Shown: positions 13,590-58,218 of the stretch, piece after piece
Position numbering within the stretch: the first letter of the stretch is position 1
Layout of the letters: each line of letters opens with the position of its first letter
Source of the DNA: an uncultured marine group III euryarchaeote
Lineage (GTDB): Archaea; Thermoplasmatota; Poseidoniia; MGIII; CG-Epi1
NCBI GenBank assembly: GCA_902627615.1
Contig: CACOJW010000002.1
Coordinates: 26,971-90,970, forward strand
Reading direction: 5' to 3'
Length of the DNA stretch: 64,000 nucleotides
The notes under the pieces: generated by a model
What the model was told of the DNA's origin: nothing
The model's input: the letters and a program-made list of their open reading frames with translations, nothing else
Database searches by the model: none
Program-made: the position numbers and the translations under genes

Positions 13590-16500
13590 TCACGTATTAC
13601 AAATTGAGAGCCACACATAGGACAGCCGACTTGAATTGGTCTTTGAGTAGTTGTTATTGAGATTAATCCGTTACAATTTGGGCAGTTCAATTCCAGAGGT
13701 CCAGGAGTGACATCTTCGAACATTTCTTCGAAATCATCTCCACCGCCACCACCCATTCTCTTCAAGCCCATAGCTAATCCAGCTAGTGCTACGACGGCAA
13801 CTCCAGCAATACCTGCGAGCATTGTTGTACTGTAGCCATCTTCCTCACCATCTCCTCTATTGACACCACTGTCGCTAACAGTTACAGTAGCTTGCCAAGT
13901 AGCAGTTCCACCTCTTTCATCAGTAACTGTCAAAATGGCAATATAGGTTCCAGGAGTGTTGTATATTTTATTGAAGGTTTTAGAGTTTTTATCACCTAGA
14001 AGATTGATTGAAAATCCTTGGCCATTTACAATACTCCAAGAATATTCTAGTTTGCTATCATCACCATCAGGGTCGTATGAATTAGCTGCGGAGTAAGTAA
14101 TTTCTTCTCCAGTTTTTGCAGATTTTAGAATATCACTAAAAATTCCTTGGCCATTAATGAAAATTCCAGCTTCTGCTTTAGCAACAGGATTTATATTTTC
14201 AGGTAGATAAATTCTAATTGGAATCAATGGAGACCAACTACTAGCAAGTATGTCATCAGCTCCACTTTCATCGATTTCTCGAGCCATTAATTGTGCACTA
14301 AATATTTTTTCATCAAATAGTTCGGGCAAGGTATAGTTGTAACCATTTGTTGTCACTTGGCTATCTACTACTTCAAGTAAAAATAATCCTTCTCCGAGGT
14401 TTAGGTTAGCAATAGCGGCATTAGAACCGTTCATAAGTCTGAAAATTCTATTTATTCCAAATTCATTTTGTACTACTTCTTCGCCACTATCTAGCTGCAA
14501 CTCACCTCCATTAGGGCCCGTGAAGAAGGCGTTACGATATAGTCGAACAGTTTGTCCTTCTTTTACCCAATCAGAGAAAACATTATCTCCGAAATTAAAT
14601 CGATATTCTAATTCAGCACGGTAATCAGGATCATAGGAGTCACTAACATCAAATGTTATGAAAGCACCATCAGAAGCTTCAGTTATGTTCGATTTTAATA
14701 TTGCAATAGGCTGGGTGTTCGCTTTAACTTCTACAGTGATGACTTGTTGAGTAGATTCTTTTCTTCTTTCATCTCTTGTCTGCACAAGTATTTCTTTTTC
14801 ACCAGGCGTAGAAAAACTTAGATCCCACGTATAGTCTGAAACCCATGTAGTCCAACTTCCATCGAAATAGTATCTGTAAGTTAAATCAGGGTTGCCGTCT
14901 AATCGATCCATTTCACCATCTGTAGTTTCATTGTCGTATGAATTTCCTGCATCTACGCGTGCCGCTTCGTCAACCCAAAGAATGGTCTTGTCGATAGTAG
15001 CTTCGACAACGGGTTTGTCGTTTGGAATTTCTTCTATTTCTAGAATGGTATAATCCTTATTGTTACTAAATCGAGTTTCTTGTCTAGGTTGGTTGGTATC
15101 TTCCGCTAGTCCATAAATTTCATGATAGCCAGGAGTTGTTTGAATTCCATACCAAATGACTTCAAAAGAAGCAGATTCTCCGTTGCTTAGTGCTTTACAT
15201 CCGTCACGTTGATTTTCTTCAGTTGCATCACAACTAAATTCGGTTATTTTCTTTCCACCAGCGTCAGGATCTCCATCGTATATTTTCACTCTCCACTTAG
15301 CAGTATCGGCACCGCCGTAATTTACGATGCTTAGATTTATAGTGATATCTTCATCCTCGTTTGGATTTTCAGGAAGATAACTAATTTCACTTCCTTCAAT
15401 AGCCAAATCAGGCTTATTGGTTTGACCTTCAGTTGTGAATAACCAGAGGTAAGCATCACTTCCTACAGCCATCTCCATTGCACCATCATTATCAGCATTT
15501 CCAATAGCTATTCCTCCGTAATGTCCAGCTCTGTTAGATAAAGCACTGGTTTTTGCTTCAAAAGTTCCAGGCTCTATTCCGTCATAAATGAATAATTCTC
15601 CTCCTGAAGTTCCGTAGATCAATTCAGCCTCTCCATCACTATCAAAATCTCCAACTTCGATACCCCAAACGGAGTTACTGTCTACATCTTTTGAATAATC
15701 CTCAGCATGAGAATCTCCATCATAAATTATCAAACGAGGTTTATTCTCGCCTTTTTCACCAGTACCGACAATAATTTCTTCAGTTCCATCACCGTCTAAA
15801 TCTCCAACATCAATTCCATAAGCAGTATATCTTGCAGTATTCATGACTGAACCGTCTAGTGAATAACTTCCACCAGTTCGCTGGTATACTCTTACCTCTG
15901 CATTAGCTTGCGATCCTTCTCTGTTATCACCTCCAGTTCCTACCACAAGTTCATTGTCCCCATCATTATCAGGATCTCCACTATCAATTCCTCCAACAAT
16001 TTGTCCGATATCTCCAGAAGTCCATTCTTGGGAAAAGCTAGAACCGCCATATCCCCAAACTTTGACTGCACCGTGTAATTCAGTAGTTCCAGAAGTTGCC
16101 TCAATAATTTCTAAGTATCCTGTAGCAATTCCGATTTCAGGGTGGTTTGTTCCATCTAATTCGGAAATAGTTACTCCCAAAGAAGCGTCAATATTTCCAC
16201 TTTTGAAAGCTTCAGTGAAGCCATCTCCACTTCTTTCAAAAACATACAGATATCCTTCACCTCCATCGCCCTCCTCACCTTTTGGTTCTCCAGGGATTCC
16301 GGTGGTTACAGCAATATCATTATTCCCATCACTATCTAAATCACCAATTGCAACTCCAATGGGAATTTTATCTAATTGTGGACTTACCCATTGGGTTTCG
16401 TAAGTTGCACCATCGAAGACATAAATTCTTCCGGAACCAGATCCAACGACAATTTCTAAATTATCGTCATCATCTAAGTTAGCCATATCTACTCCATAGT

Positions 16501-17788
16501 TGCTTCCACCTTCCAGTGTAGCTAATAAATTGTCATTTTCTCCAGCTTCACTGGTCCATGCTAAAGCATGATTTGTTTGAGAGGTCACTTCCCAAGCTCT
16601 TACTATTCCAGCATCACTTCCATGAACAATCCAAGGGTCATCATGTCCATTCATAGAGATAGTTACTCCTCCTCCGGTATTCATTGGAAATCCGCCACTC
16701 CATTCTTGGTAGGTTGTTAAACTGGAACCAGACAATCCCATGATTCGTATGTTTCCACTTCCATCGGCAACAACTAATTCTTCATTGCTATTTCCAAATA
16801 AATTTTCACTTGCTAGTCCATATCCACTTTTTACGTCGTTATCGCTAATCCTCTCGTCACGATCACCGTCCACAAAAATAGTTATTTTTGATTGTTGAGG
16901 AACAATCAACTCATCAATTCCATTTCCATCTAAGTCGGCTGCGTGTAAACTGTAACACAAGCTATCTGCGCCACTACTTCCATCCATGTCATATTTCCAT
17001 TGCATTTCTTCAGTTTGGCCGTCAAAAACTGCGACCCAGCCCTGCTTACTTCCAACAGCTACCTCTGTAGCTTCATCGTCGTCAAATTGTCCAAATGTTA
17101 AGCCCCAAGTATTTTCTAAATTACCGCCACTAGTTTTAGCTCCAAGATCTACATACCACTCAGCTTCATCGTAAGTAATATCTCTGCCAACATAAATTTC
17201 AGGTTTATCTGTATCTACAACCCATAAAAATCCACGATCACCACTCATTGCCAATTCAGCTTTTTCATCCCCATCCAAGTCGCCCATTGCCAGCCCATAT
17301 GGCCATCCTTCAGTCCATTGAGTGTGTGACCATGATACTCCAGAAGACCAATTTGCTTCTGCAAGAAGAGAGATTCCATCAATAATTTTTACTTTTCCAG
17401 AATCTGCATTCCAGTTGTAACCAATTGCAATTTCCAATTGTGGGTCATCATCTATTTGTGCTATTTCCATTCCTTTTACAGGACCACCCATATCTACGGT
17501 GTGGAATGTTTCAAACCATCCTTCGTTACTAGAATCCCAGTCCAAAATGTGGACATATCCTTGTGAATTACCAAAAATTAACTCATCCTCACCATCTATA
17601 TCTATGTCAGCACTTTTAATCGAATTTAAAGCACCGACACCAGTACCTATTCCAGTATGCCATTTTTCGCTTAAATAACCAGTATCCGTATCTGTTCTAG
17701 CATCATTTGCAGCTTCAACATTTATTCCAGAGGAAACGGCAGAAATCAAAAAGACGATAGCCAATGCTAGAGCTTTTGCTGGATTCAT
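13586..17788 (-). CDS. Giant (1400 aa) integrin-alpha-like FG-GAP/VCBS beta-propeller surface protein with CARDB and PKD domains, a TM helix and a cytoplasmic C-terminal zinc ribbon
   Basis: Signal peptide MNPAKALALAIVFLISAVSSG. At least 9 FG-GAP Ca loops (GDLDGDEKAE, ADLDGNGIDE, GDLDSDGNNDIA, GDLDGDGTEE, GDFDSDGEAE...). CARDB-like segment (PDLAIEGSEISYLPENP..ITINLSIVNYGG). PKD signature (SYDPDGDDSKLEYSWSI...GTYIAILTVTDERGG). TM MLAGIAGVAVVALAGLAMGL. Tail CPNCNG...CPMCGSQF. Confidence 0.9.
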   Translation of the reverse strand: MNPAKALALAIVFLISAVSSGINVEAANDARTDTDTGYLSEKWHTGIGTGVGALNSIKSADIDIDGEDELIFGNSQGYVHILDWDSSNEGWFETFHTVDMGGPVKGMEIAQIDDDPQLEIAIGYNWNADSGKVKIIDGISLLAEANWSSGVSWSHTQWTEGWPYGLAMGDLDGDEKAELAMSGDRGFLWVVDTDKPEIYVGRDITYDEAEWYVDLGAKTSGGNLENTWGLTFGQFDDDEATEVAVGSKQGWVAVFDGQTEEMQWKYDMDGSSGADSLCYSLHAADLDGNGIDELIVPQQSKITIFVDGDRDERISDNDVKSGYGLASENLFGNSNEELVVADGSGNIRIMGLSGSSLTTYQEWSGGFPMNTGGGVTISMNGHDDPWIVHGSDAGIVRAWEVTSQTNHALAWTSEAGENDNLLATLEGGSNYGVDMANLDDDDNLEIVVGSGSGRIYVFDGATYETQWVSPQLDKIPIGVAIGDLDSDGNNDIAVTTGIPGEPKGEEGDGGEGYLYVFERSGDGFTEAFKSGNIDASLGVTISELDGTNHPEIGIATGYLEIIEATSGTTELHGAVKVWGYGGSSFSQEWTSGDIGQIVGGIDSGDPDNDGDNELVVGTGGDNREGSQANAEVRVYQRTGGSYSLDGSVMNTARYTAYGIDVGDLDGDGTEEIIVGTGEKGENKPRLIIYDGDSHAEDYSKDVDSNSVWGIEVGDFDSDGEAELIYGTSGGELFIYDGIEPGTFEAKTSALSNRAGHYGGIAIGNADNDGAMEMAVGSDAYLWLFTTEGQTNKPDLAIEGSEISYLPENPNEDEDITINLSIVNYGGADTAKWRVKIYDGDPDAGGKKITEFSCDATEENQRDGCKALSNGESASFEVIWYGIQTTPGYHEIYGLAEDTNQPRQETRFSNNKDYTILEIEEIPNDKPVVEATIDKTILWVDEAARVDAGNSYDNETTDGEMDRLDGNPDLTYRYYFDGSWTTWVSDYTWDLSFSTPGEKEILVQTRDERRKESTQQVITVEVKANTQPIAILKSNITEASDGAFITFDVSDSYDPDYRAELEYRFNFGDNVFSDWVKEGQTVRLYRNAFFTGPNGGELQLDSGEEVVQNEFGINRIFRLMNGSNAAIANLNLGEGLFLLEVVDSQVTTNGYNYTLPELFDEKIFSAQLMAREIDESGADDILASSWSPLIPIRIYLPENINPVAKAEAGIFINGQGIFSDILKSAKTGEEITYSAANSYDPDGDDSKLEYSWSIVNGQGFSINLLGDKNSKTFNKIYNTPGTYIAILTVTDERGGTATWQATVTVSDSGVNRGDGEEDGYSTTMLAGIAGVAVVALAGLAMGLKRMGGGGGDDFEEMFEDVTPGPLELNCPNCNGLISITTTQRPIQVGCPMCGSQFVIRE
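13589..13690 (-). other. Cytoplasmic C4 zinc-ribbon tail of the FG-GAP surface protein
   Basis: LNCPNCNGLISITTTQRPIQVGCPMCGSQFVIRE lies after the TM helix and a KRMGGGGGDDFEEMFED linker. Confidence 0.75.
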
Positions 17789-33668: not shown

Positions 33669-34364
33669 ATGGTTAATATGAATCTCGAAGTCCCGTTGTA
33701 TACTCAGTCCATGGATTTTAGTTGTGGTTCAGCTTGTGTAGCAATGGCTCTGAAATATTTTAATTTTGTTAGTAATATGGATAGAGATCTTGAAGTTGAG
33801 CTATGGAGAGAAACGAATGCTGTCGAGATGAAAGGTGCAGGCAGATATGGCGTTTGTGCTCCACTTTCTGTTAGAGGCCTCCACCCACACATCATAACAG
33901 ATAATCCTGATTTAGGGCTTATTGAAAGGGCCAAAACATATGTCAAGTCTAATGGTGGAAATGAAAATTATCTTATTTTCTTCCATGACATGCAAAAAAG
34001 AGTATGCGCACTTAATGGAACCACTCAAGAGATCAGAAAGCCAACATTAGAGGATATTCGTGAGGCAATTCAAACAGATAGAATTTGTATTGCACTAGTT
34101 TCTACAATAATCTTTGAGGAAGAAGATGAAGACATTCCACATTGGATTGTCATCACCGGGGAAGATAATGGAATTCTGACGGTAAATAACCCAATTGATG
34201 AAGATACAGCAAAATCTCATCGACCTATCTACTTTGAAGATCTTTACACTAATGTTGAAATGTATCAAGAAACAACGTTGATAACAGTCGGCAAGAAAGC
34301 TCTTGAAAAAGAATTAGTCCCTGAGCCGGAATTATCCACAAAATACCTAGAATATGTTCGTTGA
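33669..34364 (+). CDS. Papain-like cysteine peptidase, C39-like domain protein
   Basis: VPLYTQSMDFSCGSACVAMALKYF (an oxyanion Gln and catalytic Cys spaced as in C39), followed later by IPHWIVITGED..VNNPID (candidate His and Asp/Asn). Confidence 0.6.
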   Translation: MVNMNLEVPLYTQSMDFSCGSACVAMALKYFNFVSNMDRDLEVELWRETNAVEMKGAGRYGVCAPLSVRGLHPHIITDNPDLGLIERAKTYVKSNGGNENYLIFFHDMQKRVCALNGTTQEIRKPTLEDIREAIQTDRICIALVSTIIFEEEDEDIPHWIVITGEDNGILTVNNPIDEDTAKSHRPIYFEDLYTNVEMYQETTLITVGKKALEKELVPEPELSTKYLEYVR

Positions 34365-35723
34365 AAGGTAGTAATACATTAGGTAAATACCTATCACTAT
34401 CATAATGATTCCACCAGTCATTTCTATTTGGCGAGTTGAGGCTTTCATTCTATCAACAATTGTAGTTTCAGATGCAGCCACCATCATTGTGAAAGCCACC
34501 ATCAAGATTCCAGCAGTCATTGCGAAAATTAAGAAAACTAGTAGTCCCGTTATTATTCCTTGACTAATACTTGCAGTTAACAGCCCTATTACGACAGGAG
34601 CCACACATCCTGCAGCTGCAGATCCGTAAGCAACACCATACCAGAATAGACCAATTCGAGTTCCGTCTGAATTATCTGAGAAACTGAAGTCTTTTCCTGT
34701 TGTGGCTTTAATTCCTTTTTCTATTCCTTGTTTAGCCATAAGTGCAGGGGCCGAACTTCCTATTTGGGCTACAAGTTTACGGAATGGCTGGACTATCTTC
34801 TCAGAATCATATTCCATTACCATCACAACACCTAATCCAGTAAGTACTATTCCAATTAACAATTCTAAATGTCCTAATAACCCTCCAATAACACTCACAA
34901 ATGGAATCAGTAATATTCCAATCAATAGCAAAACTCCTGCCAAACCTGCCGCAGCAGCCAATCCATCAGGCAATGTTTCTCTTGCAGCGGTTTCATCAAA
35001 TTTACCAGTTCGTTGCTTCTTGTTTGCTAAGTAAAAAGACATGTATCCGGGAAGCATAGGAAATGAGCATGGAGAGAAGAAAACCATCACTCCAGCACCC
35101 ACTGCAAATAAATAAATTGAAGATTCTTTTAGATTAACAACGCCGCCTTGACCAGTAAGTGCTTTATCAACTTCATTGCTTAGTTCACTTTCAGAGATAG
35201 GGCCAACATGAGAATAGGTGATTTTCCCTTCTTTATCTATGATGAATATTTTAGGAGTTCCAATAACATTGTAGTCTATCTCAATATCTCCATTTGAATC
35301 TCCAAGTGCATGTCTCCAATCATGTTCTTCAGCATAATTCCTCAATTTAGTTTCATCATCGTTACCAAAAACACTAACAGAGACTATTGCAATATCATCC
35401 TCGTCCATATAACCAGAATAAGGTCCTAAAGCTTCCTTTACGAATTTCTCACATGGTACACAAGTACTGAACATAAAATCGAGAATTACTACTTTCTCAC
35501 CTTCGTAATCAGATAAGGAGAAAGTTACACCCTCAGTATCTTTTAGTGTAAAATCAGGAGCCTCATTATCTCCTCCAATCATACCGTATAGTACAATTGC
35601 TAAAATAAGTATTACACCAGTTCCAATAGCAAATAGAACTTTATTTTCTAGTATAGAGTTGTACCAATCACTTTGATTAATATTCTCTATGAATACATCC
35701 CAATTAGTTTTTTGCTTAGCCAC
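34347..35723 (-). CDS. Fusion protein: N-terminal TM anchor, TlpA/ResA-like thioredoxin domain (CVPC) and CcdA/DsbD-type transmembrane thiol-disulfide electron transporter
   Basis: APDFTLKD..G..FSLSDYEGEKVVILDFMFSTCVPCEKF...VIGTPKIFIIDKEG (Trx fold with a cis-Pro), then FFSPCSFPMLPGY and AAAGCVAPVVIG (the two conserved CcdA membrane cysteines). Confidence 0.85.
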   Translation of the reverse strand: MAKQKTNWDVFIENINQSDWYNSILENKVLFAIGTGVILILAIVLYGMIGGDNEAPDFTLKDTEGVTFSLSDYEGEKVVILDFMFSTCVPCEKFVKEALGPYSGYMDEDDIAIVSVSVFGNDDETKLRNYAEEHDWRHALGDSNGDIEIDYNVIGTPKIFIIDKEGKITYSHVGPISESELSNEVDKALTGQGGVVNLKESSIYLFAVGAGVMVFFSPCSFPMLPGYMSFYLANKKQRTGKFDETAARETLPDGLAAAAGLAGVLLLIGILLIPFVSVIGGLLGHLELLIGIVLTGLGVVMVMEYDSEKIVQPFRKLVAQIGSSAPALMAKQGIEKGIKATTGKDFSFSDNSDGTRIGLFWYGVAYGSAAAGCVAPVVIGLLTASISQGIITGLLVFLIFAMTAGILMVAFTMMVAASETTIVDRMKASTRQIEMTGGIIMIVIGIYLMYYYLSTNIF

Positions 35724-35733
35724 CTAGTTACAC

Positions 35734-37074
35734 CTAGTTTTTTCGTCGATTTAATCCAATAAATAGAGCACACAGGATTCCAATAATCCCGAGTCCGGGA
35801 GAATCTTGTTCATTATTTCCAGTTCCAGTACCTTCGAATTGCTTAGCTTCACTGGCTGCAAAACCTTGTTTTCCGTCAACCAACAAAATTCGATACCAAA
35901 CAGGATCTCCGTCACTAAATTCAATAGATGCAGAAGCTACATTATTTTCATCTATTTCCATAGGCATTACTCCCCAAGCTTCATCATTGTATGAACCATT
36001 ATGGAAATTATAAATTATATAAGCTGAACCGATTCCATCTTCATCTTCAAGAGTGGCACTAACTTTAGCTACGCTTCCTTCTAGCTTTTCATCATAACTA
36101 ACAACTTTTGGAGGCTCGTTTTGCTCGTCATATGCAGTTGATTCAGGAGTTGCTGAATTAGCAGCTCTTGGGGTATCTGCTGCGTTGCCCGTTTTTCCAG
36201 ATGAAGTAGTTCTGGAAGTATCATCATTGTCGTATACTACAGCTACAACAGAAATTTTGGCAGGATTGATTGGTGTAAGAATAGGATGTTCACCTTCTTG
36301 GGGATTTCCATCATGATCTTCGTGACCACTTGGATACATAATTGTTTCAGGAATTATCCATTCAACTTCATTACTCCAGGTTTCACCAGGTAATAGTTCA
36401 ACTTGAGCATTATGAAGAGCCGTTTCTCTGAAAACGTTGTGAGTCATAACTTCTTTATCTTCGACAGAACTCCAAGCCATGATGTCATCTTCAACTACAA
36501 ACAAGTAAACGCTTGAATCAAGTTGATCAGGATCAGTTGGAAGGCGAATGCCTCCTTCACCCAAATAAGTTAAGTTTACAGTAAATACAAATCGGTCTTC
36601 CCTAAATTCTTGCCAGACCCTTAGTTCTGTTGGTTTAACCTCTCTTTCACCACATTCAAAATAATGATCTTTGTAAGTATCATAAGTACCGTCTCCACCA
36701 CCTAATTCTTCGATGTATCCTCCATCAAATTGAGCATCAGGAGTACCCTGCACTGAGTAATGGTTGTAACGGTCTTTAGCTTCTTGACTAGCAAATTCAT
36801 CATCTGATCCACCATTTATTTGGTGAAATGATACAAATGTTACAGGGTGAGAAGGATCTTCTCGAAATTCTTTCCATAGTTTTGCCACATCTGGGTCAAT
36901 ACCCATACATGGAGGGCAGCCTAAGCTGGTAAATTGCTCCATGAGAGGCCTGTGAGTCCATCCGTTAGGATATTCATCTGGTTCAGTATTGCTAGCCCCG
37001 GTAGGAATTGAAATTGATGAAATAACAAATATAAAACAAACAGCTATGGTTAGTAAATTTAGTCTCTTGCTCAC
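35734..37074 (-). CDS. Surface-anchored thioredoxin-fold CxxC protein (CPPC), paralogue 1, with a PGF-CTERM-like tail
   Basis: Signal peptide; YPNGWTHRPLMEQFTSLGCPPC...FVSFHQINGG...VQGTPDAQFDGG (a DUF1223/Omp28-like pattern); C-terminus SPGLGIIGILCALFIGLNRRKN. Confidence 0.8.
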   Translation of the reverse strand: MSKRLNLLTIAVCFIFVISSISIPTGASNTEPDEYPNGWTHRPLMEQFTSLGCPPCMGIDPDVAKLWKEFREDPSHPVTFVSFHQINGGSDDEFASQEAKDRYNHYSVQGTPDAQFDGGYIEELGGGDGTYDTYKDHYFECGEREVKPTELRVWQEFREDRFVFTVNLTYLGEGGIRLPTDPDQLDSSVYLFVVEDDIMAWSSVEDKEVMTHNVFRETALHNAQVELLPGETWSNEVEWIIPETIMYPSGHEDHDGNPQEGEHPILTPINPAKISVVAVVYDNDDTSRTTSSGKTGNAADTPRAANSATPESTAYDEQNEPPKVVSYDEKLEGSVAKVSATLEDEDGIGSAYIIYNFHNGSYNDEAWGVMPMEIDENNVASASIEFSDGDPVWYRILLVDGKQGFAASEAKQFEGTGTGNNEQDSPGLGIIGILCALFIGLNRRKN

Positions 37075-37127
37075 ACTATCACCTTGAACTAATATCCTAC
37101 AGCACGTATTTTACACTTTTGCTCTTT

Positions 37128-38636
37128 CTAATCCCAAATTTCAGCATCATCCCAAGACCCTTCGGCAGGCCTTCTAGCCCACATAACAAATCCTGCGACA
37201 GCTCCCAAAACTAAGGTACCAACGGCAATCATCATAATTGGTAAATCTCTTTCTTCAGAAGGAGGAGTTCCGCCATCTGAACCTACAAATTGTAAAACAT
37301 CAGTTCTACTTGACGTTTTATTTCCATCTGAGAAAATAACTTGATAATAAATTTCATTATCGCCAGAGTAGGGAATTAATGAAGTTCCTGTAGCTCCAGA
37401 GTATGCGTAACAGACTCCGTTTTCGTCACAGACTTCTTCACCTTCAATTTTCATTTCATCAGTCATCCATTCACCAGTAAAATTACTTGATTCATAATTA
37501 TAGACTACAAATGCAGCACCTATGCCCTCATCTGCATCGAAGTTAGCGAGTATTTCTGCACCTTCATCAAGGTATTTTTCAGTTTTTTTGGTTATCTCAG
37601 GAACATCTCTCTCAGGGTTATCATATTCAGTTGATTGAGGTGTAGCAGATTGAATTGCCCTAGGTGTAGGATATGTGTCGTCACCGTTTGAGTCCTGATC
37701 GTTGCCAGAATCTGTATCATCGAGATCAAAAACAGCTGCAATTGGAATTATTCTACCTGGGTTGATTGGTATTTTGATGTCACCACTTACTCCATCTCCA
37801 TCAACTTGGGTGGTTGGAACTTTCCAAACAGCACTAACTGTGGTTGATTCACCTTCAGCAAGAGTAAATTGTTCATCATTTATTCCATATTCTCGAAATA
37901 CCATTCTATTATTCCAAACTTCGTCTAGATATGAAGAATAAGCAGGAACTCCATCTTCAACCATGAAAACAATTAGTTCACCGTTTAAATCAGGACTTTC
38001 TCCTAAAACATCATCAGGTTCAGTAGGGATTCCATCATCACCTCCAGTCTGTCCATGGTATGTGATATCAACACTTAGTCTGAATTGTCCAGCTTCACCT
38101 TCAGATTCAGACCCTATAAATTCACTGTAAATATCTAAATCTACGATTTTGAAAGGTTCGTCATTTCCTTCACCCTCTCTTTGTCCAGACTCAGACATTG
38201 CATTAGTGTAATCTTGATAGTTTGAATCTCCACCACCTCCAACATACCTATAATTTCCATCAAATTGAGCGTTGGGCGTTCCAGTTTGACCATAGTGGTC
38301 TCTCATTCTGGATTTGGAATCTTCAGTATGGAAAGGATCATCACCAGCACCTCCATTTGTTTGATGGAAAACAACAACATTGTAAGGATTTGATTCATCC
38401 ATTTCGCCATCATGAATTACTTCTTCCATAGCAGGATCAGCATAATTCATACAATACACACAGCTCAAACTCGTAAAAAGTTCTCCAAAAGGCCTGTGTG
38501 TCCATCCATTAGGGTAAGTTCTGTCAGAATTAGTTGTTTCGTATTCTATCGTTTCTTCAATGGCTCCTGAGGAGCAAGGAGAACAAAAGGATAGTGCGAC
38601 GGCCATCACTATAGCCAGTTTAACTGATTCCAACAT
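37128..38636 (-). CDS. Surface-anchored thioredoxin-fold CxxC protein (CVYC), paralogue 2, with a TM anchor and acidic cytoplasmic tail
   Basis: Alignable with 35734..37074 along its whole length: YPNGWTHRPFGELFTSLSCVYC, VVVFHQTNGG, QTGTPNAQFDGN, TPRAIQSATPQSTEYD. C-terminal TM IMMIAVGTLVLGAVAGFVMW. Confidence 0.8.
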   Translation of the reverse strand: MLESVKLAIVMAVALSFCSPCSSGAIEETIEYETTNSDRTYPNGWTHRPFGELFTSLSCVYCMNYADPAMEEVIHDGEMDESNPYNVVVFHQTNGGAGDDPFHTEDSKSRMRDHYGQTGTPNAQFDGNYRYVGGGGDSNYQDYTNAMSESGQREGEGNDEPFKIVDLDIYSEFIGSESEGEAGQFRLSVDITYHGQTGGDDGIPTEPDDVLGESPDLNGELIVFMVEDGVPAYSSYLDEVWNNRMVFREYGINDEQFTLAEGESTTVSAVWKVPTTQVDGDGVSGDIKIPINPGRIIPIAAVFDLDDTDSGNDQDSNGDDTYPTPRAIQSATPQSTEYDNPERDVPEITKKTEKYLDEGAEILANFDADEGIGAAFVVYNYESSNFTGEWMTDEMKIEGEEVCDENGVCYAYSGATGTSLIPYSGDNEIYYQVIFSDGNKTSSRTDVLQFVGSDGGTPPSEERDLPIMMIAVGTLVLGAVAGFVMWARRPAEGSWDDAEIWD

Positions 38637-50053: not shown

Positions 50054-53000
50054 ATGCAAAAAACTCATAATGTAAGCAAGAGAAATTGGGCTGCAAAGCT
50101 GATGGCGATTGTAGTCGTCGTGTCTATGGTAGCAAGCACGTTAGTGCTATTCGCTCCAGAGGCATCGGCAAGAACCGGAAGTGATTCTTACGGTTATACT
50201 TTTAAGGATAATGCTGAGGCAGATGGTCCAGTATACGATGATGAATGGATAGAATTAGTGGGCAATGATGCGGCTGAGCTATTAATTTCATCTAGTACTG
50301 ATGCAGGTCAATCCGCAGTTGATATTGGTTTTACCTTTGAATTCTACGAAAATGAATATACGACGTGGGGTAACGGAGGAGACAATGGATATATCAATTT
50401 AGGATCTGCAGGTTATTCCTCTCGCTGGACTCCATATTCAATCCCATATAGTGGATTGGGTACTGCAGTCATTGGCGGATGGTTTGACGGCGGTTTCTGT
50501 CGAGCAAGTAATCCAACAGCAGGAGTTTACTACGCTACTATAGGTACTGAACCAAACAGAAAATTAGTTGTTCAATACCAAGATCAGGGAGCATGGTATC
50601 CTTCAGTTTATCAATGTCCAGGTGCTGCAGCAGCTAATGCTTTGACCTGGCAGATAGTATTGCACGAAAATACAAATTTAATTACTATGAATTACAAGGA
50701 TACTAATGGCGGATATAGTTCAGATAATGAATATATGACAGCAGGTATCCAAGGTGTTCCAGGTGGAACTTTAACCGGTTTACAATATGCATACCGTAAT
50801 AGTCCAACTTGGTCTGATGAAACATCAGTAAGATATGCACCACCACCTCCAGCAAGAAATGATTTGAGATTGAAATCAACAGCAGTTCCTGATCCAATGT
50901 CTTTGGCAGAGGAAAACATTCTTGGAGCTACAGTATCTAATTACGGTGTAAACTGTGACACAGCAGGTGAATGTACTCCAGTAAATGAGGACAATGTAGC
51001 TGTAAAAGCCAGTATTTTCTCAGTTAAAGAGAGCGTTTCCACTTTCGCATTTGACGGTGAAGACTCAGATTCGTTCACACCAATGAGTATTCAAGGTCAA
51101 AACAAGTGGACTGCAGCTTTGAATGATGGTAAAGGAGACCACAACTACGGTGATGAAGGAAGTGACGATGGTTCATGGTCTTCAGGCCGTAAATCACAGA
51201 CTCTTGGCGGTATGTTTACAGATCAACAAAAAATCCATTACGATGGAACTAATATTTTGATTGCAGATAAAGGCTCAGACAGTGTTTTGAAATTGGATAT
51301 TGCCACAAATGCAGTAACAACAGTTATTGCTGCAAGTAGCACTTATCTTAATGATGTAATTGATGTTACAGATGATGGAACTTACTACTACACTTTGGCT
51401 AGAACTTCAGGAACTTACTCATCTACAACTAAAGTTTGTAAGTGGTTAATTTCTGATACAACCCAAGCACCAACATGTAGCGGTTCGACTGCAGTAAGGT
51501 ACGGAACTTCTTTGACCCATTACGGCGGTGAACTCTTTGCACTACAAACTTCATCAAGTTCGACATATCGTAAAGTCATAATTTTAGATGCAAGTGATAT
51601 GTCAACAGAAGGCAGTCTTTCCTATGCAAGTGGAGTTTCATCTTATTATTATGCAATGGGAATCGATGCCGATGATACTAATGGTGATTTGTATATTGCT
51701 TACCGTGATTACTACGGACGCACTAGAGAATATACTAGAGATTCAGATGGAGATTATTCAGCATCTGATTATAGGCAATTCTACACATACGCAAGATATC
51801 ACCACGCATTGGATGTTCAAGATGACTACGTCTACACTAGTGGATTCTACTACTCATCATGGTATGGCGGTATGAAGAAATGTTCAACAAGTTCATCTAG
51901 TTGTTCAACACTTTGGAATTCATACACTGGAGCGAACGGATACAAAGGTTCAGTTGCAACAACTGATACTGGAGATATTTACGTATCTAGTAATTACGCA
52001 TTCAGTTACTACAGTTTCTCTAATTGGGACGATAAAATCTGGATTCACGAAAATGATGGTGGCTACTCAGGTACACCAGATACAACCTTGGGACCAAATC
52101 CAGCTAGTTTGGCAGCATTGTCAACTCCGGCATTTGACACATCAGATGCTATTGGAATGACAATGACTTTCAAGTATTCATACCAATTTTACTACAGATG
52201 GGAAGGTGCTTACCTTGAGTCATCTGTTGACGGCGGAAGCACTTGGGACTATGTTTCAGGTGATAAATTCTCAGCCGGCGGATACTATGGAACTACATTC
52301 GGAGTATACGGAAATCCAATATCTACCTCACTAGATACTTGGACTTACTATAACACGAACGATAGATACAGTTACAATACAAATTCAGCCCCATGGGCCA
52401 CAGCTTCATTAGATCTTGGAGATTACACTGGTTACAGTGATGTGAGATTCCGATGGGTTGTAGGTTTCAATCAGTATGATAATACATACTACTATGATTC
52501 CTACTTCAGGATTGATGATGTAGAAATAACTACTAAAGAAGCAGATACTACTTATGCAGAAGAAACTCAAACTATAGCTTCTCTCGGGTTTAAAGAGGAA
52601 GCAAGTGTAGAATTCTTTACAGTGGATACTTTCCAGCCTTCGTTGGAAGGACTATCTGTTGGAGATAAGCTGGCAGTATTGATTAGTGTTACTGGCGAGA
52701 ACGGTGATGAGGATCTCAGTAACAACCGAGATATCCAATTCAGAGAAGTCAAATACGTTATATTTGCAGATGATTTCGAAGATGGTGATGCTAGCAATTG
52801 GGAAACTGGTAAGGTTAGATACGGATCAGGAGATACCTGGGAAGTTCGTGATAGAGATTCTAATGCAGGCTCTTACTCCATGGACAGTGACTTTAGGAGA
52901 TCAAATTCTGTTCCGGCAGATAACTATGTATCAACTCCAAGTTTAGACTTGACTTTGCCTGTAGAAGCCGAGCTTCAGATGGCAATATCTTTCTACGGAT

Positions 53001-56000
53001 ACTACACGTATGATGGATATCAAGTGCAGGCTTCAGGAGATGGTGGAGATACCTGGGCAGCGATACAACCTAAAGCCAGTGATCCAAGACAGTATGGTAC
53101 AATCTATAATACAGCGTACTATTCCAATCCACTACGTGGACTCAAGGGATACACATCTTATGGAACAACAACTGGATTTACCTATTCGCCTGATCCTCAG
53201 GGATGGGTAAAAGCTACCTTTGATTTGACAGAGTTCTGTGGAAAGAATGATGTTAAGGTTAGAGTAGTTACAGGTTGGTCAACATTATCGACAGGTCCAA
53301 GTTACTTCGAATCATTCTTTAGGTTTGATGACGTAGCAGTTACTGGATTGGTCTTTAATGATAATATAGGTCTAGGAGGATTTGAACTGCCGGACCCATT
53401 GGGCGTAGATGCAACAGTGCCTGTAGAAGCAACTGTCATTAACGCAGGTATCAACGCACAAGCTGCAAATGAGGCAACTGTAAGACTACAATTAGGACCT
53501 ATGGGATTGGAAACATATGATTCCTCAGAAGATATGGAAGACTATGCAGATGAAGCTGCAGCAGTAGTTGCAGGCTGGGCAACCAGTGATGACTGTAACA
53601 CAACCTACAGCACATGTAGCAACTGGGGATACTATGGAGGAGATCCAGGTTTTGTCATGAACACTGATGAAGGAGATGGTGACGAAACCAACTCTTGGGG
53701 TTCAGATGGCGATGAGTTCCAAATGTATTACGGCGGAGGAAGTGTTAGTGCAACAACACCAACAATTGATTTCTCTGGTGCAGCTAGTGATTTAACATTC
53801 ACAATGGTCCACAGATACAACTTTGATTACTATGCAGGATATACAGCTTATAATGGTGCTCAAGTTCACATATCAACAGATGGTGGAGACAATTGGGAAT
53901 TACTCACACCTAGCGGTGGATACCCAGGAACAATGTACAACTATGCACCATACGGTAATCCATTGTCTGGACAAGCTGGTTTCGTAAACTGTGGTTCTTG
54001 TCCAGGATCTGGAGCAGCCAGTGACGATGCAGACGAGTATATCTCTACTGAATTCGCTATGGCTGATTACGTAGATATGACAGATGTAAAGCTCAAGTTT
54101 GTTGTTGGAATGTACAGATATCAATGGCCAGGTGATGGAGAACACTGGCATATTGATTCATTGTCATTCACAGGAACAGGAATGGAGTCAGTTGCATTTG
54201 AAAAGCAATGGGATATCACAGGTGCTGGTGCTGGTGGAGAGTTCCAGAGTGGTGAAGCTCAAACAGTTGGTGTAGATTATCATTTCCAAGTTCCAGGAGA
54301 ATACAAAATTGTATTTGACGCATGGATAGGAGATAATCCATCTGATGGAGATGACTTTGCTGGAGACAACAGCGTTGCTCTTGCAAGGGAAACAATGTTC
54401 ACAGTTGTAGGAACTACAGGAGATGAGAGTGCTATGACTAAGAAGAATGACGAAAACAATGATAGACACTATGATAGTGGTTGGCACGCCTCTGTAGATG
54501 GAGGACCTAAGGATGGATTCCAATGGCAACCTTCAGCTACTACTGGAGCAAGTTCTGCACCGGTATGGTGGAATGGCCTTGACACCTATGGTAGTTCGTA
54601 TAATGGTGATGATACTAGCTTAGTATCTCCAGTTTTCGACCTTTCCAAGGCAACATCTGCTAAACTAGTATTCAACCACAAGTTTGCAATGCATGGATTT
54701 GAATATTCATGGGCTAATTACTACTATGATGGTGGTCGAATTGAAATTAGTACAGACGCAGGAGATTCCTGGTCAGCATTGAATCCAACCTCCGGTTTGG
54801 GCTATGGTGGAACTATCTACAACTATGCATACTATGGCAATCCATTGAGAGGTCAATCAGGTTTCGTTATGGGCTCTGATGGCTGGCACGAAACACAATG
54901 TAGATTAGATTCTTACACAGGTCCGGGAATGGATCAACTTCAGATAAGATTCCGATTGGGTGGAACGTTCTTTAACAATCCAACAAATTGGGAAATTGAT
55001 GATGTAGGAGTTTATGGACTTGGTTTCGATCTTGCTATGACCTCTGAAGCAGCACCGTATACCTTAGAAGTAGGTGAATCATTCACGATGTCTACTTCAT
55101 TCAAAAATCAAGGTATGGGTAACCTAGGACCTGGAGGCGCTGTGGAAACTGCTCACGCATATGCATATGTTAATGATATGGGTGGCAACGAGCTTTGGTC
55201 ATCTGAAACATCACTCGGTACGCTAGCAATGGCTTACTACGATGACGCAGGCAATACAGTTGCAGGTGCAGAATCAGCAGTCATTGACTTTGAATTCCCA
55301 GGAATGGATACGGCTGGATTATACACAGCAGGTGTCAAAGTAGCAGATGCCGATGGTAACACATTAGCAGACTTGTTCATGGCTAACAATGATGCAAGCC
55401 ACATGTTGATTGTAGGTAAGAGCGCAGATATGGGTTCACCACTATTGACTGGCGGACCTAATTGGGTAGCAACAGAAGATGAACCTGCAGAAGTCGGTGA
55501 CGGCGCTATGGGCGTTTCATGGGACCAAACTGGCGTAGCTACAGATGCATTAGCAGTGTCCATTGGAGGACAAGCTACTGGTTTTGTTCCTCAGAACCCA
55601 ACAGTTCAACTTGGAACTGAAGTAACATGGACCAATGCAGATAGTATAACACACACAGTAACAGACAAGGATGCACAATTCGATTCTTTCGATATGCTAC
55701 CTGGTGAAAGTTATTCATTAACCTTCACGGAAGTAGGAGTGTTCAACTATTACTGTAAGTTCCATCCAATGATGGAAGGATCTATAACCGTACTATCTTC
55801 GCAGTCGGCAGATGAGCAAGTCAGAACAAGCTACGTTGAAGTTTGGTCTGCTACAGCTTATCTAGTATTCTGGGCAAATTTCGATATGTCTGACGACAGT
55901 GAAATTAGTATTTATGCACAGAAGAAAGGCGCATCTTTAGATGATGCAGACACTCTAGGACTATGGGGAGCTAATGGATTCACCATAATGGACGGATCAA

Positions 56001-57196
56001 ACCATGAGGAAGTTGGAGGAACACTATCTGGTAATTCAGATGGCTGGAACCCATACTACATGTCATTAGATTCAAAGAAGCTAGGATACAGTAGTTTAGA
56101 TTACGATCCAGCAGATGACAATGCATACTCATTCGTTTTCCGTGCAAGAGGTGTTGAAGGAACAGCTCACATAGGTGGAGTTGAAGTCATTAGAACACTT
56201 GACACTGGATTCTTCATGACAAAAGATGATGTTGGTAAGTTGACCTATGATATATTCCCAAGTTTAGCAGTCGAAATTGACTACTTCACAAAGAATATAG
56301 GTACACAAGACAACACATTCCGTATGACTCCAGAATTGGAAGCACAAGGTAAATCCTATGATGGAGCTGCCTTTGATGTTTCAATCAATGTCATGATGAA
56401 CGGTAATACCTTCGAAGATATTACTTCAAGCCAAGATGAAAACGGAGTTTGGACATACGAATTTGATATGGCTCCAGATGATGAAGCAATGATTACTGTC
56501 CGTTTCGGCGCTCCAGACTACGATCAAGAAGCCGGTGAACCAGCAGGTAACCGCAAGTTTGATGTAATAGTTAATGGATACGACGTAGGCAGTGATGAAT
56601 CTCTAAGAGAACCTGTCGCTGCAACTTTGTTCATTAAACCATCACAGTTTGTGCTTGGTGAAATGACATTCAATCGTGCAGGTGTAATCGAAGGAGACTC
56701 TTTAGATATCACAGTTAAAGCATGGAACGAAGGTAACTACGCATCTGATGTGTTAGTTGTTTTCTACGCTATGGATTCAACTGGTGATGCATACTCCACT
56801 CCTGAAGGGGTCAAACGTATGAAGAGAGTAGCTTCAACAACCGTACCACTAATGGCACCTAAGCCTGTTTTAGAAAACGACGGAGTTTTCCAAACTTGGT
56901 ATTTTGCAACTGCAACATGGGATGAGACATTTATTCCAGGAACTACAGTCCAAGATTTTGAAACTGTAGAAATGTATGCAATGATCAACCCAGACGCAGA
57001 AGAGCAAGATGTTAAAGACGGAGTAAAGACTCAAGATGAGTATCTAAATCAGAAAGATGATAATGATGCAGTTGGCAGTATTGCAATTGTCAAAAACAAG
57101 GCATCTACACCGTCTTTCACAGTAGGACTCATTGGTCTTTCTGTAGCAGCCTTAGTCGCATCTATTGGTGCTTCTCTTCGTAGAGAAGAAGAATAG
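50054..57196 (+). CDS. Giant (2380 aa) surface protein: signal peptide, shared N-terminal module, CARDB-like domains, a beta-propeller-like region, four MAM-like modules, an embedded cupredoxin domain and a PGF-CTERM-like C-terminal anchor
   Basis: Signal AAKLMAIVVVVSMVASTLVLFAPEASA. N-terminal GSDSYGYTFKDNAEADGPVYDDEWIEL...FTFEFYENEY is homologous to 8610..12740. MAM-like modules at about 52092..52537, 52764..53347, 53689..54175 and 54478..55018, carrying YGNPIS, YYSNPLRG, YGNPLSG and YYGNPLRG. Tail PSFTVGLIGLSVAALVASIGASLRREEE. AGGTG lies 8 nt before the ATG. Confidence 0.92.
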   Translation: MQKTHNVSKRNWAAKLMAIVVVVSMVASTLVLFAPEASARTGSDSYGYTFKDNAEADGPVYDDEWIELVGNDAAELLISSSTDAGQSAVDIGFTFEFYENEYTTWGNGGDNGYINLGSAGYSSRWTPYSIPYSGLGTAVIGGWFDGGFCRASNPTAGVYYATIGTEPNRKLVVQYQDQGAWYPSVYQCPGAAAANALTWQIVLHENTNLITMNYKDTNGGYSSDNEYMTAGIQGVPGGTLTGLQYAYRNSPTWSDETSVRYAPPPPARNDLRLKSTAVPDPMSLAEENILGATVSNYGVNCDTAGECTPVNEDNVAVKASIFSVKESVSTFAFDGEDSDSFTPMSIQGQNKWTAALNDGKGDHNYGDEGSDDGSWSSGRKSQTLGGMFTDQQKIHYDGTNILIADKGSDSVLKLDIATNAVTTVIAASSTYLNDVIDVTDDGTYYYTLARTSGTYSSTTKVCKWLISDTTQAPTCSGSTAVRYGTSLTHYGGELFALQTSSSSTYRKVIILDASDMSTEGSLSYASGVSSYYYAMGIDADDTNGDLYIAYRDYYGRTREYTRDSDGDYSASDYRQFYTYARYHHALDVQDDYVYTSGFYYSSWYGGMKKCSTSSSSCSTLWNSYTGANGYKGSVATTDTGDIYVSSNYAFSYYSFSNWDDKIWIHENDGGYSGTPDTTLGPNPASLAALSTPAFDTSDAIGMTMTFKYSYQFYYRWEGAYLESSVDGGSTWDYVSGDKFSAGGYYGTTFGVYGNPISTSLDTWTYYNTNDRYSYNTNSAPWATASLDLGDYTGYSDVRFRWVVGFNQYDNTYYYDSYFRIDDVEITTKEADTTYAEETQTIASLGFKEEASVEFFTVDTFQPSLEGLSVGDKLAVLISVTGENGDEDLSNNRDIQFREVKYVIFADDFEDGDASNWETGKVRYGSGDTWEVRDRDSNAGSYSMDSDFRRSNSVPADNYVSTPSLDLTLPVEAELQMAISFYGYYTYDGYQVQASGDGGDTWAAIQPKASDPRQYGTIYNTAYYSNPLRGLKGYTSYGTTTGFTYSPDPQGWVKATFDLTEFCGKNDVKVRVVTGWSTLSTGPSYFESFFRFDDVAVTGLVFNDNIGLGGFELPDPLGVDATVPVEATVINAGINAQAANEATVRLQLGPMGLETYDSSEDMEDYADEAAAVVAGWATSDDCNTTYSTCSNWGYYGGDPGFVMNTDEGDGDETNSWGSDGDEFQMYYGGGSVSATTPTIDFSGAASDLTFTMVHRYNFDYYAGYTAYNGAQVHISTDGGDNWELLTPSGGYPGTMYNYAPYGNPLSGQAGFVNCGSCPGSGAASDDADEYISTEFAMADYVDMTDVKLKFVVGMYRYQWPGDGEHWHIDSLSFTGTGMESVAFEKQWDITGAGAGGEFQSGEAQTVGVDYHFQVPGEYKIVFDAWIGDNPSDGDDFAGDNSVALARETMFTVVGTTGDESAMTKKNDENNDRHYDSGWHASVDGGPKDGFQWQPSATTGASSAPVWWNGLDTYGSSYNGDDTSLVSPVFDLSKATSAKLVFNHKFAMHGFEYSWANYYYDGGRIEISTDAGDSWSALNPTSGLGYGGTIYNYAYYGNPLRGQSGFVMGSDGWHETQCRLDSYTGPGMDQLQIRFRLGGTFFNNPTNWEIDDVGVYGLGFDLAMTSEAAPYTLEVGESFTMSTSFKNQGMGNLGPGGAVETAHAYAYVNDMGGNELWSSETSLGTLAMAYYDDAGNTVAGAESAVIDFEFPGMDTAGLYTAGVKVADADGNTLADLFMANNDASHMLIVGKSADMGSPLLTGGPNWVATEDEPAEVGDGAMGVSWDQTGVATDALAVSIGGQATGFVPQNPTVQLGTEVTWTNADSITHTVTDKDAQFDSFDMLPGESYSLTFTEVGVFNYYCKFHPMMEGSITVLSSQSADEQVRTSYVEVWSATAYLVFWANFDMSDDSEISIYAQKKGASLDDADTLGLWGANGFTIMDGSNHEEVGGTLSGNSDGWNPYYMSLDSKKLGYSSLDYDPADDNAYSFVFRARGVEGTAHIGGVEVIRTLDTGFFMTKDDVGKLTYDIFPSLAVEIDYFTKNIGTQDNTFRMTPELEAQGKSYDGAAFDVSINVMMNGNTFEDITSSQDENGVWTYEFDMAPDDEAMITVRFGAPDYDQEAGEPAGNRKFDVIVNGYDVGSDESLREPVAATLFIKPSQFVLGEMTFNRAGVIEGDSLDITVKAWNEGNYASDVLVVFYAMDSTGDAYSTPEGVKRMKRVASTTVPLMAPKPVLENDGVFQTWYFATATWDETFIPGTTVQDFETVEMYAMINPDAEEQDVKDGVKTQDEYLNQKDDNDAVGSIAIVKNKASTPSFTVGLIGLSVAALVASIGASLRREEE
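55560..55800 (+). other. Type-1 copper (cupredoxin/plastocyanin-like) domain inside the giant protein
   Basis: PQNPTVQLGTEVTWTNADSITHTVTDKDAQFDSFDMLPGESYSLTFTEVGVFNYYCKFHPMMEGSITV. It carries His (THTV) and the C-x2-H-x2-M ligand set in the canonical order and spacing. Confidence 0.8.
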
Positions 57197-57297: not shown

Positions 57298-58218
57298 ATG
57301 TTTGAACCAGCTTCTTCAACAGGAACGATATTAGTTGTGGTTGTGGGATTTCTAGTTCTTAATTATTGCCGACAGAATCAGTTTATGGTTTCGCAATCGC
57401 TAGTTTTCATTAACTTTAGTATATTTGCTACTTGGTGGATTCTAGTTTTTATTAAACCTTCAATGGCAATTGATGCACTATTAAATTTAGGATTCAAGCC
57501 TTTGTATTTGCAATCGTTAAATTTTGAACTATTGACTCTGTTTAGTTCAATGTTTATGCATGGAAGTCCTATGCATTTACTAATGAACATGCTGATATTG
57601 ATATTATTGGGCGTTCCTTTTGAAGATCGTATAGGTTCAAAATCTTTTTTGCGAATTTATTTGATCAGCGGTCTAATAGGATCTTTACTTACCGGAATAA
57701 TCTCAGTTTGGAATGAAGGGAATGACATAGAAACAGTCCATATTGGCGCTTCAGGAGCAGTTTTCGGCATTATGGGTGCATTTGTCTTATTGTATCCTAG
57801 GCTTGAGATACCTATGCTTTTAGGGCCAATATTTATGCAAAGAGTTCCTGTTTTACTATCTACTATAGTATTTGTTGGAATGGAAACTCTCTATGTGGGT
57901 TTAGGTACTGATGATGGTATAGGGCATGGAACACACATGGCGTCGTTTGTTGGAGGTGTATTCTTAGCTCCTTATTATGCATCTAAAGTAAAAGATATTA
58001 AAGAAGCAATTAATTTTGATTTATCCTTTTTATCCAAAATCAATGAAAAAACAGGTATGGGGAGTCGTGAGCTCAAGATGGTTGAGGATTCTGATGAACC
58101 AGAGTTGATAGAAGCTTGGATAGATGAATTTTGGAAAATTCAAAAGTGTCCTAATTGTGGGGGAGATATATCTCCAAAAGGCAAGTGTTCAAAGTGCAAT
58201 TCTAATTTTATAGATTAA
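57298..58218 (+). CDS. Rhomboid-family intramembrane serine protease with a C-terminal cytoplasmic zinc ribbon
   Basis: MHGSPMHLLMNM (H-x4-H-x3-N), catalytic GASGAVFG, catalytic His in GHGTHMASFVGG, and C-terminal CPNCGG...CSKCNS (58147..58218). Confidence 0.9.
   Translation: MFEPASSTGTILVVVVGFLVLNYCRQNQFMVSQSLVFINFSIFATWWILVFIKPSMAIDALLNLGFKPLYLQSLNFELLTLFSSMFMHGSPMHLLMNMLILILLGVPFEDRIGSKSFLRIYLISGLIGSLLTGIISVWNEGNDIETVHIGASGAVFGIMGAFVLLYPRLEIPMLLGPIFMQRVPVLLSTIVFVGMETLYVGLGTDDGIGHGTHMASFVGGVFLAPYYASKVKDIKEAINFDLSFLSKINEKTGMGSRELKMVEDSDEPELIEAWIDEFWKIQKCPNCGGDISPKGKCSKCNSNFID

Follow-up and report, generated by a model that had tools for sequence, protein, structure and literature searches.

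What is a single blue-copper domain doing far inside a giant archaeal surface protein? The question is raised by a 64,000-nucleotide stretch of DNA from an uncultured Marine Group III (MGIII) euryarchaeote (NCBI GenBank assembly GCA_902627615.1, contig CACOJW010000002.1, positions 26,971 to 90,970 of the forward strand; hereafter the window), in which one uninterrupted open reading frame (ORF) encodes a surface protein of 2380 residues. An earlier note, made by reading the letters alone, had placed a complete type-1 copper (cupredoxin) domain with all four copper ligands about 1835 residues into this protein. The ORF confirms that position: the 63-residue segment quoted in the note corresponds to residues 1851-1913 (nucleotides 55604-55792) in the frame of the gene, and the interval 55560-55800 brackets the Pfam envelope (residues 1836-1913). 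By sequence and by model, residues ~1830-1914 form a genuine type-1 copper domain of the amicyanin/plastocyanin type, the only cupredoxin domain within the window. Our best explanation, to which we give a probability of about 0.5, is that it provides a copper-binding and probably redox-active centre outside the cell, which caps a stalk–anchor unit and has its electron partner in trans.

The family assignment is carried by several matches. Copper-bind (PF00127), with a gathering score of 21.2, matches the full-length protein at 29.7 bits and a 167-residue fragment at 36.1 bits; Cupredoxin_1 reaches 27.5 bits on the fragment, barely above its cut-off of 27. Searching the PDB with phmmer returned the C-terminal cupredoxin of 9cck (E = 1e-16), 5fc9 (1e-11) and amicyanins (1e-9 to 1e-7), and residues 1821-1913 are the sole part of the 2380-residue protein for which the orthologue profile finds a PDB match by sequence. 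In the alignments, the His and the Cys-x2-His-x2-Met motif fall on the ligand positions of amicyanin 1sfd and the 9cck domain. The ligand loop, C-K-F-H-P-M-M, has the same length as in amicyanin, and the four ligands have amicyanin spacing.

The predicted structure agrees with this assignment. An AlphaFold2 (AF2) model of the domain (residues 1822-1922, 125 sequences) has a mean predicted local distance difference test score (pLDDT) of 89.5 and a predicted template modelling score (pTM) of 0.82; in a second model, covering residues 1780-2380 and based on a 33-sequence alignment, pLDDT lies between 85 and 93 across the cupredoxin part. The top 50 PDB matches to the domain model in Foldseek are all cupredoxins, with the Greek-key beta-sandwich fold and template modelling (TM) scores of 0.65-0.80. 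They include 9cck, 5fc9 (TM 0.80, root-mean-square deviation (rmsd) 2.1 Å), amicyanins, plastocyanins and the tethered domain of NirK 6hbe. The 601-residue model recovers the cupredoxin too, with 5fc9 at TM 0.80 and an rmsd of 1.7 Å. A superposition of ~2 Å on copper-bound structures implies that the four ligand side chains would converge on one point. The complete domain proposed in the earlier note is thus borne out by Pfam membership and fold, and copper binding is predicted to be likely.

To see how widely the site is kept, we compared orthologues, scanning one genome per GTDB species. Seven genomes contain the giant gene; their labels read Marine Group III euryarchaeote, Poseidoniia, Poseidoniales or Thalassarchaeaceae. 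Six of the seven orthologues are full length, at 65-94% identity, and the remaining one (L006) covers the C-terminal part alone. Wherever flanks are available the gene order is kept (PALP, arginase, PdxT, giant gene, rhomboid, CitMHS, PurL); the gene is therefore part of the chromosomal core and not of an island. All four ligands are retained in every one of the seven orthologues and in 22 of 25 family sequences, including shorter proteins at 54-61% identity. Changes between close orthologues fall outside the two ligand loops, WTNxDxxTHTVTD and YYCK[FY]HPMMEG, which are invariant among the orthologues.

Modular history of the chain

The 2380-residue protein is acidic (14% Asp plus Glu), rich in Gly, Ser, Thr and Tyr, and contains just 15 Cys and 24 His. 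Its first 39 residues, almost invariant among orthologues, carry no twin-arginine motif and are of the Sec type; signal cleavage would occur after Ala39. At the other end, the AF2 model of residues 1780-2380 places the anchor helix at fragment residues 582-596, and the anchor is kept in long-form relatives. Judged from these features, the protein is probably exported, anchored by its C terminus and all-beta, with an extracellular topology.

The head that precedes the cupredoxin contains four repeats, each with one Asp-box (S-x-D-x-G-x-x-W) at residues 724, 994, 1274 and 1566. They resemble MAM or Reelin-B-like jelly rolls, with matches that stay below threshold: 26.9 bits against 27 for Reelin_subrepeat-B, 19.3 against 26.9 for InhA-like_MAM and 12 against 27 for BNR. 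The non-catalytic part of NF038112 matched four stretches of the head with 97 bits. Of the module labels proposed earlier, MAM-like survives as this sub-threshold resemblance, accompanied by the four Asp-boxes, and propeller-like as a weak match to the beta-propeller repeat TIGR02276 (17.9 bits against 27.85), whereas CARDB was not detected by profile search in the 2380-residue protein. On the other side of the cupredoxin, the modelled stalk finds integrin legs, pilins and macroglobulin domains among its Foldseek matches, and the conservation table lists no conserved His or Cys within it.

The protein is a mosaic of a head of ~1800 residues and a unit made of cupredoxin, stalk and anchor, and both parts also occur apart. 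In short forms of 740-960 residues (P0040, P0175, P0176, P0179, P0180), a signal peptide leads directly into the cupredoxin, followed by the same stalk; these proteins end in PKD or Cys-rich modules and a different anchor (...ALRRRY). One of them, P0176 (L008 8001-10433), is encoded on a 469-kb contig among genes for surface proteins (Laminin_G_3, FG-GAP and beta-propeller proteins). We rejected the idea that a short form is a split version of the giant gene: the 560-residue product of the gene upstream of P0176 is unrelated to the giant protein.

The head, for its part, has a paralogue in the window. A 1376-residue exported protein without a Pfam match (8610-12740, minus strand) has the N-terminal domain in common with the giant protein (blastp, 33% identity over 291 residues, E = 8e-31) and also contains Asp-box/MAM-like modules at 24-34% identity; it has no cupredoxin, no stalk and no anchor. 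Because the cupredoxin-bearing unit exists without the head, and the head exists without a cupredoxin in the paralogue, the cupredoxin, as judged by this distribution, belongs evolutionarily with the stalk and anchor and not with the head. This modular history does not support a proposal of the earlier note, in which the copper site would cooperate with the binding head tens of nanometres out from the cell: the cupredoxin travels with the stalk.

Possible roles of the copper centre

In the reading that we prefer, a single copper ion is most likely bound by His1867, Cys1901, His1904 and Met1907, and the domain lies outside the cell at the membrane-distal end of a conserved unit, in which it is followed by a beta-sandwich stalk and a C-terminal transmembrane anchor. 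MGIII archaea have this unit fused to the ~1800-residue head of binding-type modules, and the resulting surface protein is chromosomally encoded, conserved and syntenic. Electron transfer is the established role of type-1 copper sites, and among the solved structures most closely related to the domain are electron-transfer domains tethered to copper oxidoreductases, which supports a similar task here. The copper centre may serve as a tethered one-electron relay. Its partner would be a separate molecule, either a redox protein that diffuses or is located nearby or a reductant or oxidant from outside, and no catalytic domain of the protein itself would be supplied by it. The analysis establishes the fold, the family, the ligands and how well they are kept, the modular make-up, the extracellular topology as read from the sequence and the lack of a partner in cis, whereas copper occupancy, redox activity and the identity and direction of any electron flow are inferred.

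Several observations weigh against such a relay. Comparison of the orthologues revealed no further conserved cluster of His or Cys in the 2380 residues: conserved His residues are few and scattered, and Cys residues occur in disulfide-like pairs, except for Cys1062, Cys1616 and the ligand Cys1901. With no second conserved metal or redox site in cis, any electron partner therefore acts in trans. The stalk places ~430 residues of beta-sandwich between cupredoxin and membrane. Electron tunnelling is limited to about 1.4 nm, and a stalk that is extended would hold the centre too far away for direct electron exchange with membrane complexes. Nor did we find respiratory or redox genes nearby, either among the neighbours (arginase, HhH-GPD, nitroreductase, PdxT, rhomboid, CitMHS, PurL) or among the other window ORFs scanned.

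The remaining objections come from evolution. A distant relative, P0135 on L009 (41% identity over 779 residues), has Asp in place of the ligand Cys and Tyr in place of a ligand His, its loop reading YYDTQYPQMEG instead of YYCKFHPMMEG, and the domain is still present. P0135 is a true syntenic orthologue because a rhomboid gene lies directly downstream. In P0171, a close variant, His is changed to Gln, Cys to Ser and His to Asp; this is a single variant, because its cluster mates (P0311, P0316 and P0315, at least 90% identity) retain whichever ligand positions they cover. P0182 has a deletion after Cys-x2-His that may be an artefact. The conservation of the ligands that the earlier note had looked for thus holds across the seven GTDB orthologues and most of the family and fails in a minority. 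At the level of sequence, the scaffold works without copper in at least one lineage, and the copper site is to that extent dispensable. The site is lost two or three ligands at a time in P0135 and P0171, as expected if the ligands are otherwise under joint selection for metal binding. Finally, although purifying selection acts throughout the protein, the cupredoxin has the highest ratio in the protein of nonsynonymous to synonymous substitution rates (dN/dS), 0.23-0.31 compared with 0.01-0.2 elsewhere (Nei-Gojobori, three window-based pairs, with only 78 codons in the cupredoxin part).

Several of these objections speak for the main rival, which we nevertheless consider less likely: that the domain is a structural or recognition module, one more beta-sandwich of the stalk, in which copper, if bound, merely stabilises the fold and no electrons are transferred. 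Phytocyanins, early-nodulin-like proteins and ephrins likewise present the cupredoxin fold at the cell surface, with or without copper. The persistence of the domain with a destroyed site in P0135 and P0171, the lack of a redox partner in cis, the high dN/dS, the position between Ig-like sandwiches only, and ligand loss in some domains of the tandem arrays described below all fit such a module. It does not account for the retention of the ligands and both loops in ~32 of 35 sequences, which include relatives with as little as 54% identity and represent two different architectures, nor does it explain why a protein otherwise very poor in Cys and His would keep one Cys, two His and a Met in place.

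In archaea, membrane-tethered blue copper proteins often stand in for cytochrome c (PMC9038741). This practice favours a respiratory carrier, an MGIII counterpart of halocyanin or sulfocyanin that would shuttle electrons between membrane complexes, with the stalk lying along the membrane. The status of the giant gene as a conserved chromosomal core gene would suit a carrier, as would its nearest per-domain relatives, which are small single-domain cupredoxins of 78-146 residues. We regard this role as improbable: one carrier domain per 2380 residues would be costly, ~430 residues separate it from the anchor, the site is lost in the syntenic orthologue, no respiratory genes lie near, and its scores are far below the halocyanin, plastocyanin and amicyanin cut-offs.

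A role in copper handling has a similarly small chance. Here the domain would be a high-affinity surface site for the capture, buffering or sensing of copper, scarce or toxic in seawater, resembling periplasmic cupredoxin-like proteins of copper tolerance. The extracellular location and the Met-Met pair at the ligand loop are compatible with it, and the absence of the ligands from some lineages would be in keeping with a trait that is dispensable and depends on the niche. Buried type-1 copper sites, however, exchange their metal slowly, the protein has neither His- or Met-rich tracts nor extra copper motifs, and no genes for copper transporters or chaperones were found nearby among the window ORFs scanned. 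Chance, an erroneous gene call and faulty assembly can all be dismissed, as the ORF is unbroken, full-length orthologues exist in independent genomes, and the Pfam profile, PDB-sequence and fold matches are all strong.

A bolder version of the relay is rather doubtful, if attractive: MGIII plankton might display redox-active type-1 copper on a long surface protein for extracellular one-electron chemistry or for electron exchange between cells, with the rhomboid controlling release from the anchor. If so, metals, organic radicals or reactive oxygen species could be oxidised or reduced on particles held by the binding head, and the oxic ocean would harbour a copper-based, cytochrome-free form of extracellular electron exchange. 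Marine Group III is uncultured, and the giant protein is the product of a conserved core gene with a sole recognisable cofactor site in its 2380 residues. A redox-active centre would point to surface redox chemistry in heterotrophs of the oxic ocean, in a domain that is small and easily expressed. A structural one would offer a natural series of copper-bound and copper-free versions in one scaffold, and with it a view of how cupredoxins become non-redox surface modules. In either case, the analysis provides a first map of an MGIII surface protein, including a head paralogue, a short form, two anchor types, rhomboid linkage and sequon avoidance.

Rhomboid linkage, sequons and neighbouring genes

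The coordinates of the giant gene, its parts and the adjoining rhomboid gene are collected in Table 1.

Table 1. Features of the giant surface-protein locus (positions in the window; residue numbers refer to the 2380-residue protein).
Feature	Position	Strand	Remarks
Surface-protein gene	50054..57196	+	Single uninterrupted ORF, 2380 residues, stop codon included
N-terminal signal or anchor segment, residues 1-39	50054..50170	+	Basic start, hydrophobic AIVVVVSMVASTLVLFA, then A-S-A; read from the translation
N-terminal head domain, residues ~40-290	50171..50923	+	Common to the 1376-residue paralogue; no Pfam match
Four head repeats, residues 676-831, 907-1106, 1185-1383 and 1471-1665	52079..55048	+	jackhmmer self-search
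Conserved linker, residues ~1795-1829 (PLLTGGPNW..EVGDGAMGVSWDQTGV)	55436..55540	+	Start point of short-form proteins, after their own signal peptide
Cupredoxin (type-1 copper) domain, residues ~1830-1914	55541..55795	+	Pfam, PDB-sequence and fold matches
Ligand His1867	55652-55654	+	Codon verified
Ligand Cys1901	55754-55756	+	Codon verified
Ligand His1904	55763-55765	+	Codon verified
Ligand Met1907	55772-55774	+	Codon verified
Stalk, residues ~1915-2352	55796..57109	+	~4 or 5 beta-sandwich domains between cupredoxin and anchor; AF2 model of residues 1780-2380
C-terminal anchor	57110..57193	+	P-S-F, 21-residue hydrophobic helix (residues 2355-2375), RREEE; from the translation
Rhomboid-family intramembrane protease gene	57298..58218	+	PF01694, 98.5 bits; ~100 nucleotides 3' of the giant gene

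The rhomboid gene follows the giant gene directly at eight loci: in the window, in L001-L006 and in the distant orthologue L009. Giant proteins with a downstream rhomboid all end in P-S-F, a helix and RREEE. At L007, no rhomboid lies downstream, and the protein has a tail of the short-form type (Cys-rich, ...ALRRRP). This pattern suggests that rhomboid and giant protein are a protease–substrate pair, and it is possible that the rhomboid is the processing enzyme for the C-terminal anchor. The neighbouring rhomboid scores 22.9 bits with the rhombosortase model, below the cut-off of 84. No CTERM sorting-signal model (PGF-CTERM, GlyGly-CTERM) matched the 2380-residue protein or its last 48 residues, and we therefore rejected a recognised archaeosortase or rhombosortase sorting signal: the resemblance of the P-S-F, helix and basic residues to such signals is visual only.

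The giant protein is depleted in N-glycosylation sequons. It contains two N-x-S/T motifs despite 117 Asn and 18% Ser plus Thr, compared with 20.7 +/- 4.1 in shuffled sequences. The depletion is found in all seven orthologues, with 1-4 sequons present and 20-22 expected in the full-length ones. The 1376-residue head paralogue, with 25 sequons against 19 expected, is not depleted, nor are the short forms or cytoplasmic controls. On these counts, selection seems to have acted against archaeal N-glycosylation in this protein specifically.

A third large exported protein in the window (1400 residues, 13586-17788, minus strand) contains FG-GAP repeats, CARDB and PKD domains and a zinc-ribbon-like Cys-x2-Cys tail at its C terminus. 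With three large exported proteins in the window, surface giants are therefore common in this genome. The tails of the 1400-residue protein and of the rhomboid are both of the form Cys-x2-Cys ... Cys-x2-Cys, and given the expected topology, both zinc-ribbon-like tails would be cytoplasmic. Elsewhere in the window (34347-38636, minus strand), a 458-residue AhpC/TSA-redoxin-domain protein adjoins ORFs of 446 and 502 residues without a Pfam match. No further cupredoxin or respiratory gene was found among the window ORFs scanned; there was no methylamine dehydrogenase among the neighbours and no dehydrogenase among the other window ORFs scanned.

Relation to known cupredoxins

To place the domain among its relatives, we searched 1.84 billion representative proteins exhaustively with HMMER and obtained 26,540 relatives. 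Ranked by total score, they are headed by proteins of 300-1166 residues that combine a signal peptide and a C-terminal anchor with 3-10 tandem cupredoxin domains. Compared domain by domain, the relatives outside the family that come closest (45-55% identity) are small proteins of 78-146 residues from Chloroflexota, Dehalococcoidia and Aenigmarchaeota. Members of the giant-protein family itself are labelled "plastocyanin" or "hypothetical protein" in their sources. A profile search for other giant mosaics with a single cupredoxin yielded just small single-domain proteins among the matches listed.

The amicyanin/plastocyanin type (PF00127) has the same Greek-key fold, with a TM score of ~0.7 and an rmsd of ~2 Å to amicyanins, and amicyanin has the same four ligands and the same length of the Cys-x2-His-x2-Met loop as the MGIII domain. 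These carriers are free or lipid-anchored proteins of ~100 residues, whereas here the domain lies at residue ~1835 of 2380, and neither methylamine dehydrogenase nor photosystem genes were seen near the giant gene among the window ORFs scanned. Membership in the specialised families was rejected: the domain scores 33.8 bits against a cut-off of 110.2 for the amicyanin equivalog TIGR02657, 29.1 against 93.8 for halocyanin (TIGR03102) and 26.1 against 87.85 for plastocyanin (TIGR02656).

By sequence, the best solved relatives are 9cck, the C-terminal cupredoxin of a multicopper oxidase from Nitrosopumilus maritimus (E = 9e-19 with the orthologue profile, 36% identity), and 6hbe, NirK from Thermus scotoductus. 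In both, the domain is likewise fused into a larger extracytoplasmic polypeptide. They differ in that the tethered domain serves the protein's own catalytic type-2 or type-3 copper domains, none of which is conserved in the MGIII protein. Because the MGIII protein lacks a further conserved metal site, the tethered-donor logic of NirK and 9cck is inapplicable. A catalytic partner domain in cis, of the NirK, multicopper oxidase or NosZ-like kind, was rejected for lack of a conserved His cluster, and a match to L-NosZ (E = 0.034, residues 396-457) is weak and reflects just a beta-propeller repeat. The closest stand-alone structure is the purple cupredoxin Nmar_1307 (5fc9), also from the marine archaeon N. 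maritimus, with TM 0.80, an rmsd of 1.7-2.1 Å and 32-34% identity. It has an Arg three residues past the second His, where the MGIII protein has an invariant Met.

The tandem cupredoxins belong to the same WTNxD..HTVT / C-x2-H-P-x-M subfamily, with 35-46% identity per domain, and also display copper domains outside the cell on a long polypeptide. They comprise P0010 (10 domains in 1154 residues), P0017 ('cupredoxin domain-containing protein [Chloroflexota]') and about 140 others; we found no description of this membrane-anchored type with 3-10 domains in the literature searches made. Some of the domains in these arrays lack ligands. The arrays, joined by Pro-rich linkers, could form an electron path and thus could be copper-based electron conduits, whereas in the MGIII protein the one copper domain is accompanied by non-redox modules only. 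Plant phytocyanins and early-nodulin-like proteins offer another likeness: they are cupredoxins on anchored surface proteins, and some lineages have lost the ligands and kept the domain. They differ in being eukaryotic, small and anchored by glycosylphosphatidylinositol (GPI).

The nearest counterpart in kind is found in a survey of blue copper proteins in Thermoplasmatota and Thermoproteota, which recognises a class '1D_Cu_Large' with one cupredoxin domain in more than 400 residues (PMC9038741). Both the phylum-level group and the kind of architecture are the same as here. The class is defined in the methods alone; its members, architecture and function are undiscussed, and Marine Group III is unmentioned. 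With this class, the oxidase fusions (9cck, 6hbe) and the arrays of up to 10 domains, the earlier premise that cupredoxins are only small carriers proves too narrow. Its companion remark, that no such architecture was known to have been described, agrees with our full-text literature searches, in which no description of the MGIII arrangement was found. The giant surface protein of Marine Group III thus seems to be an undescribed variant in its architecture, built around a domain that is an ordinary member of a known family.

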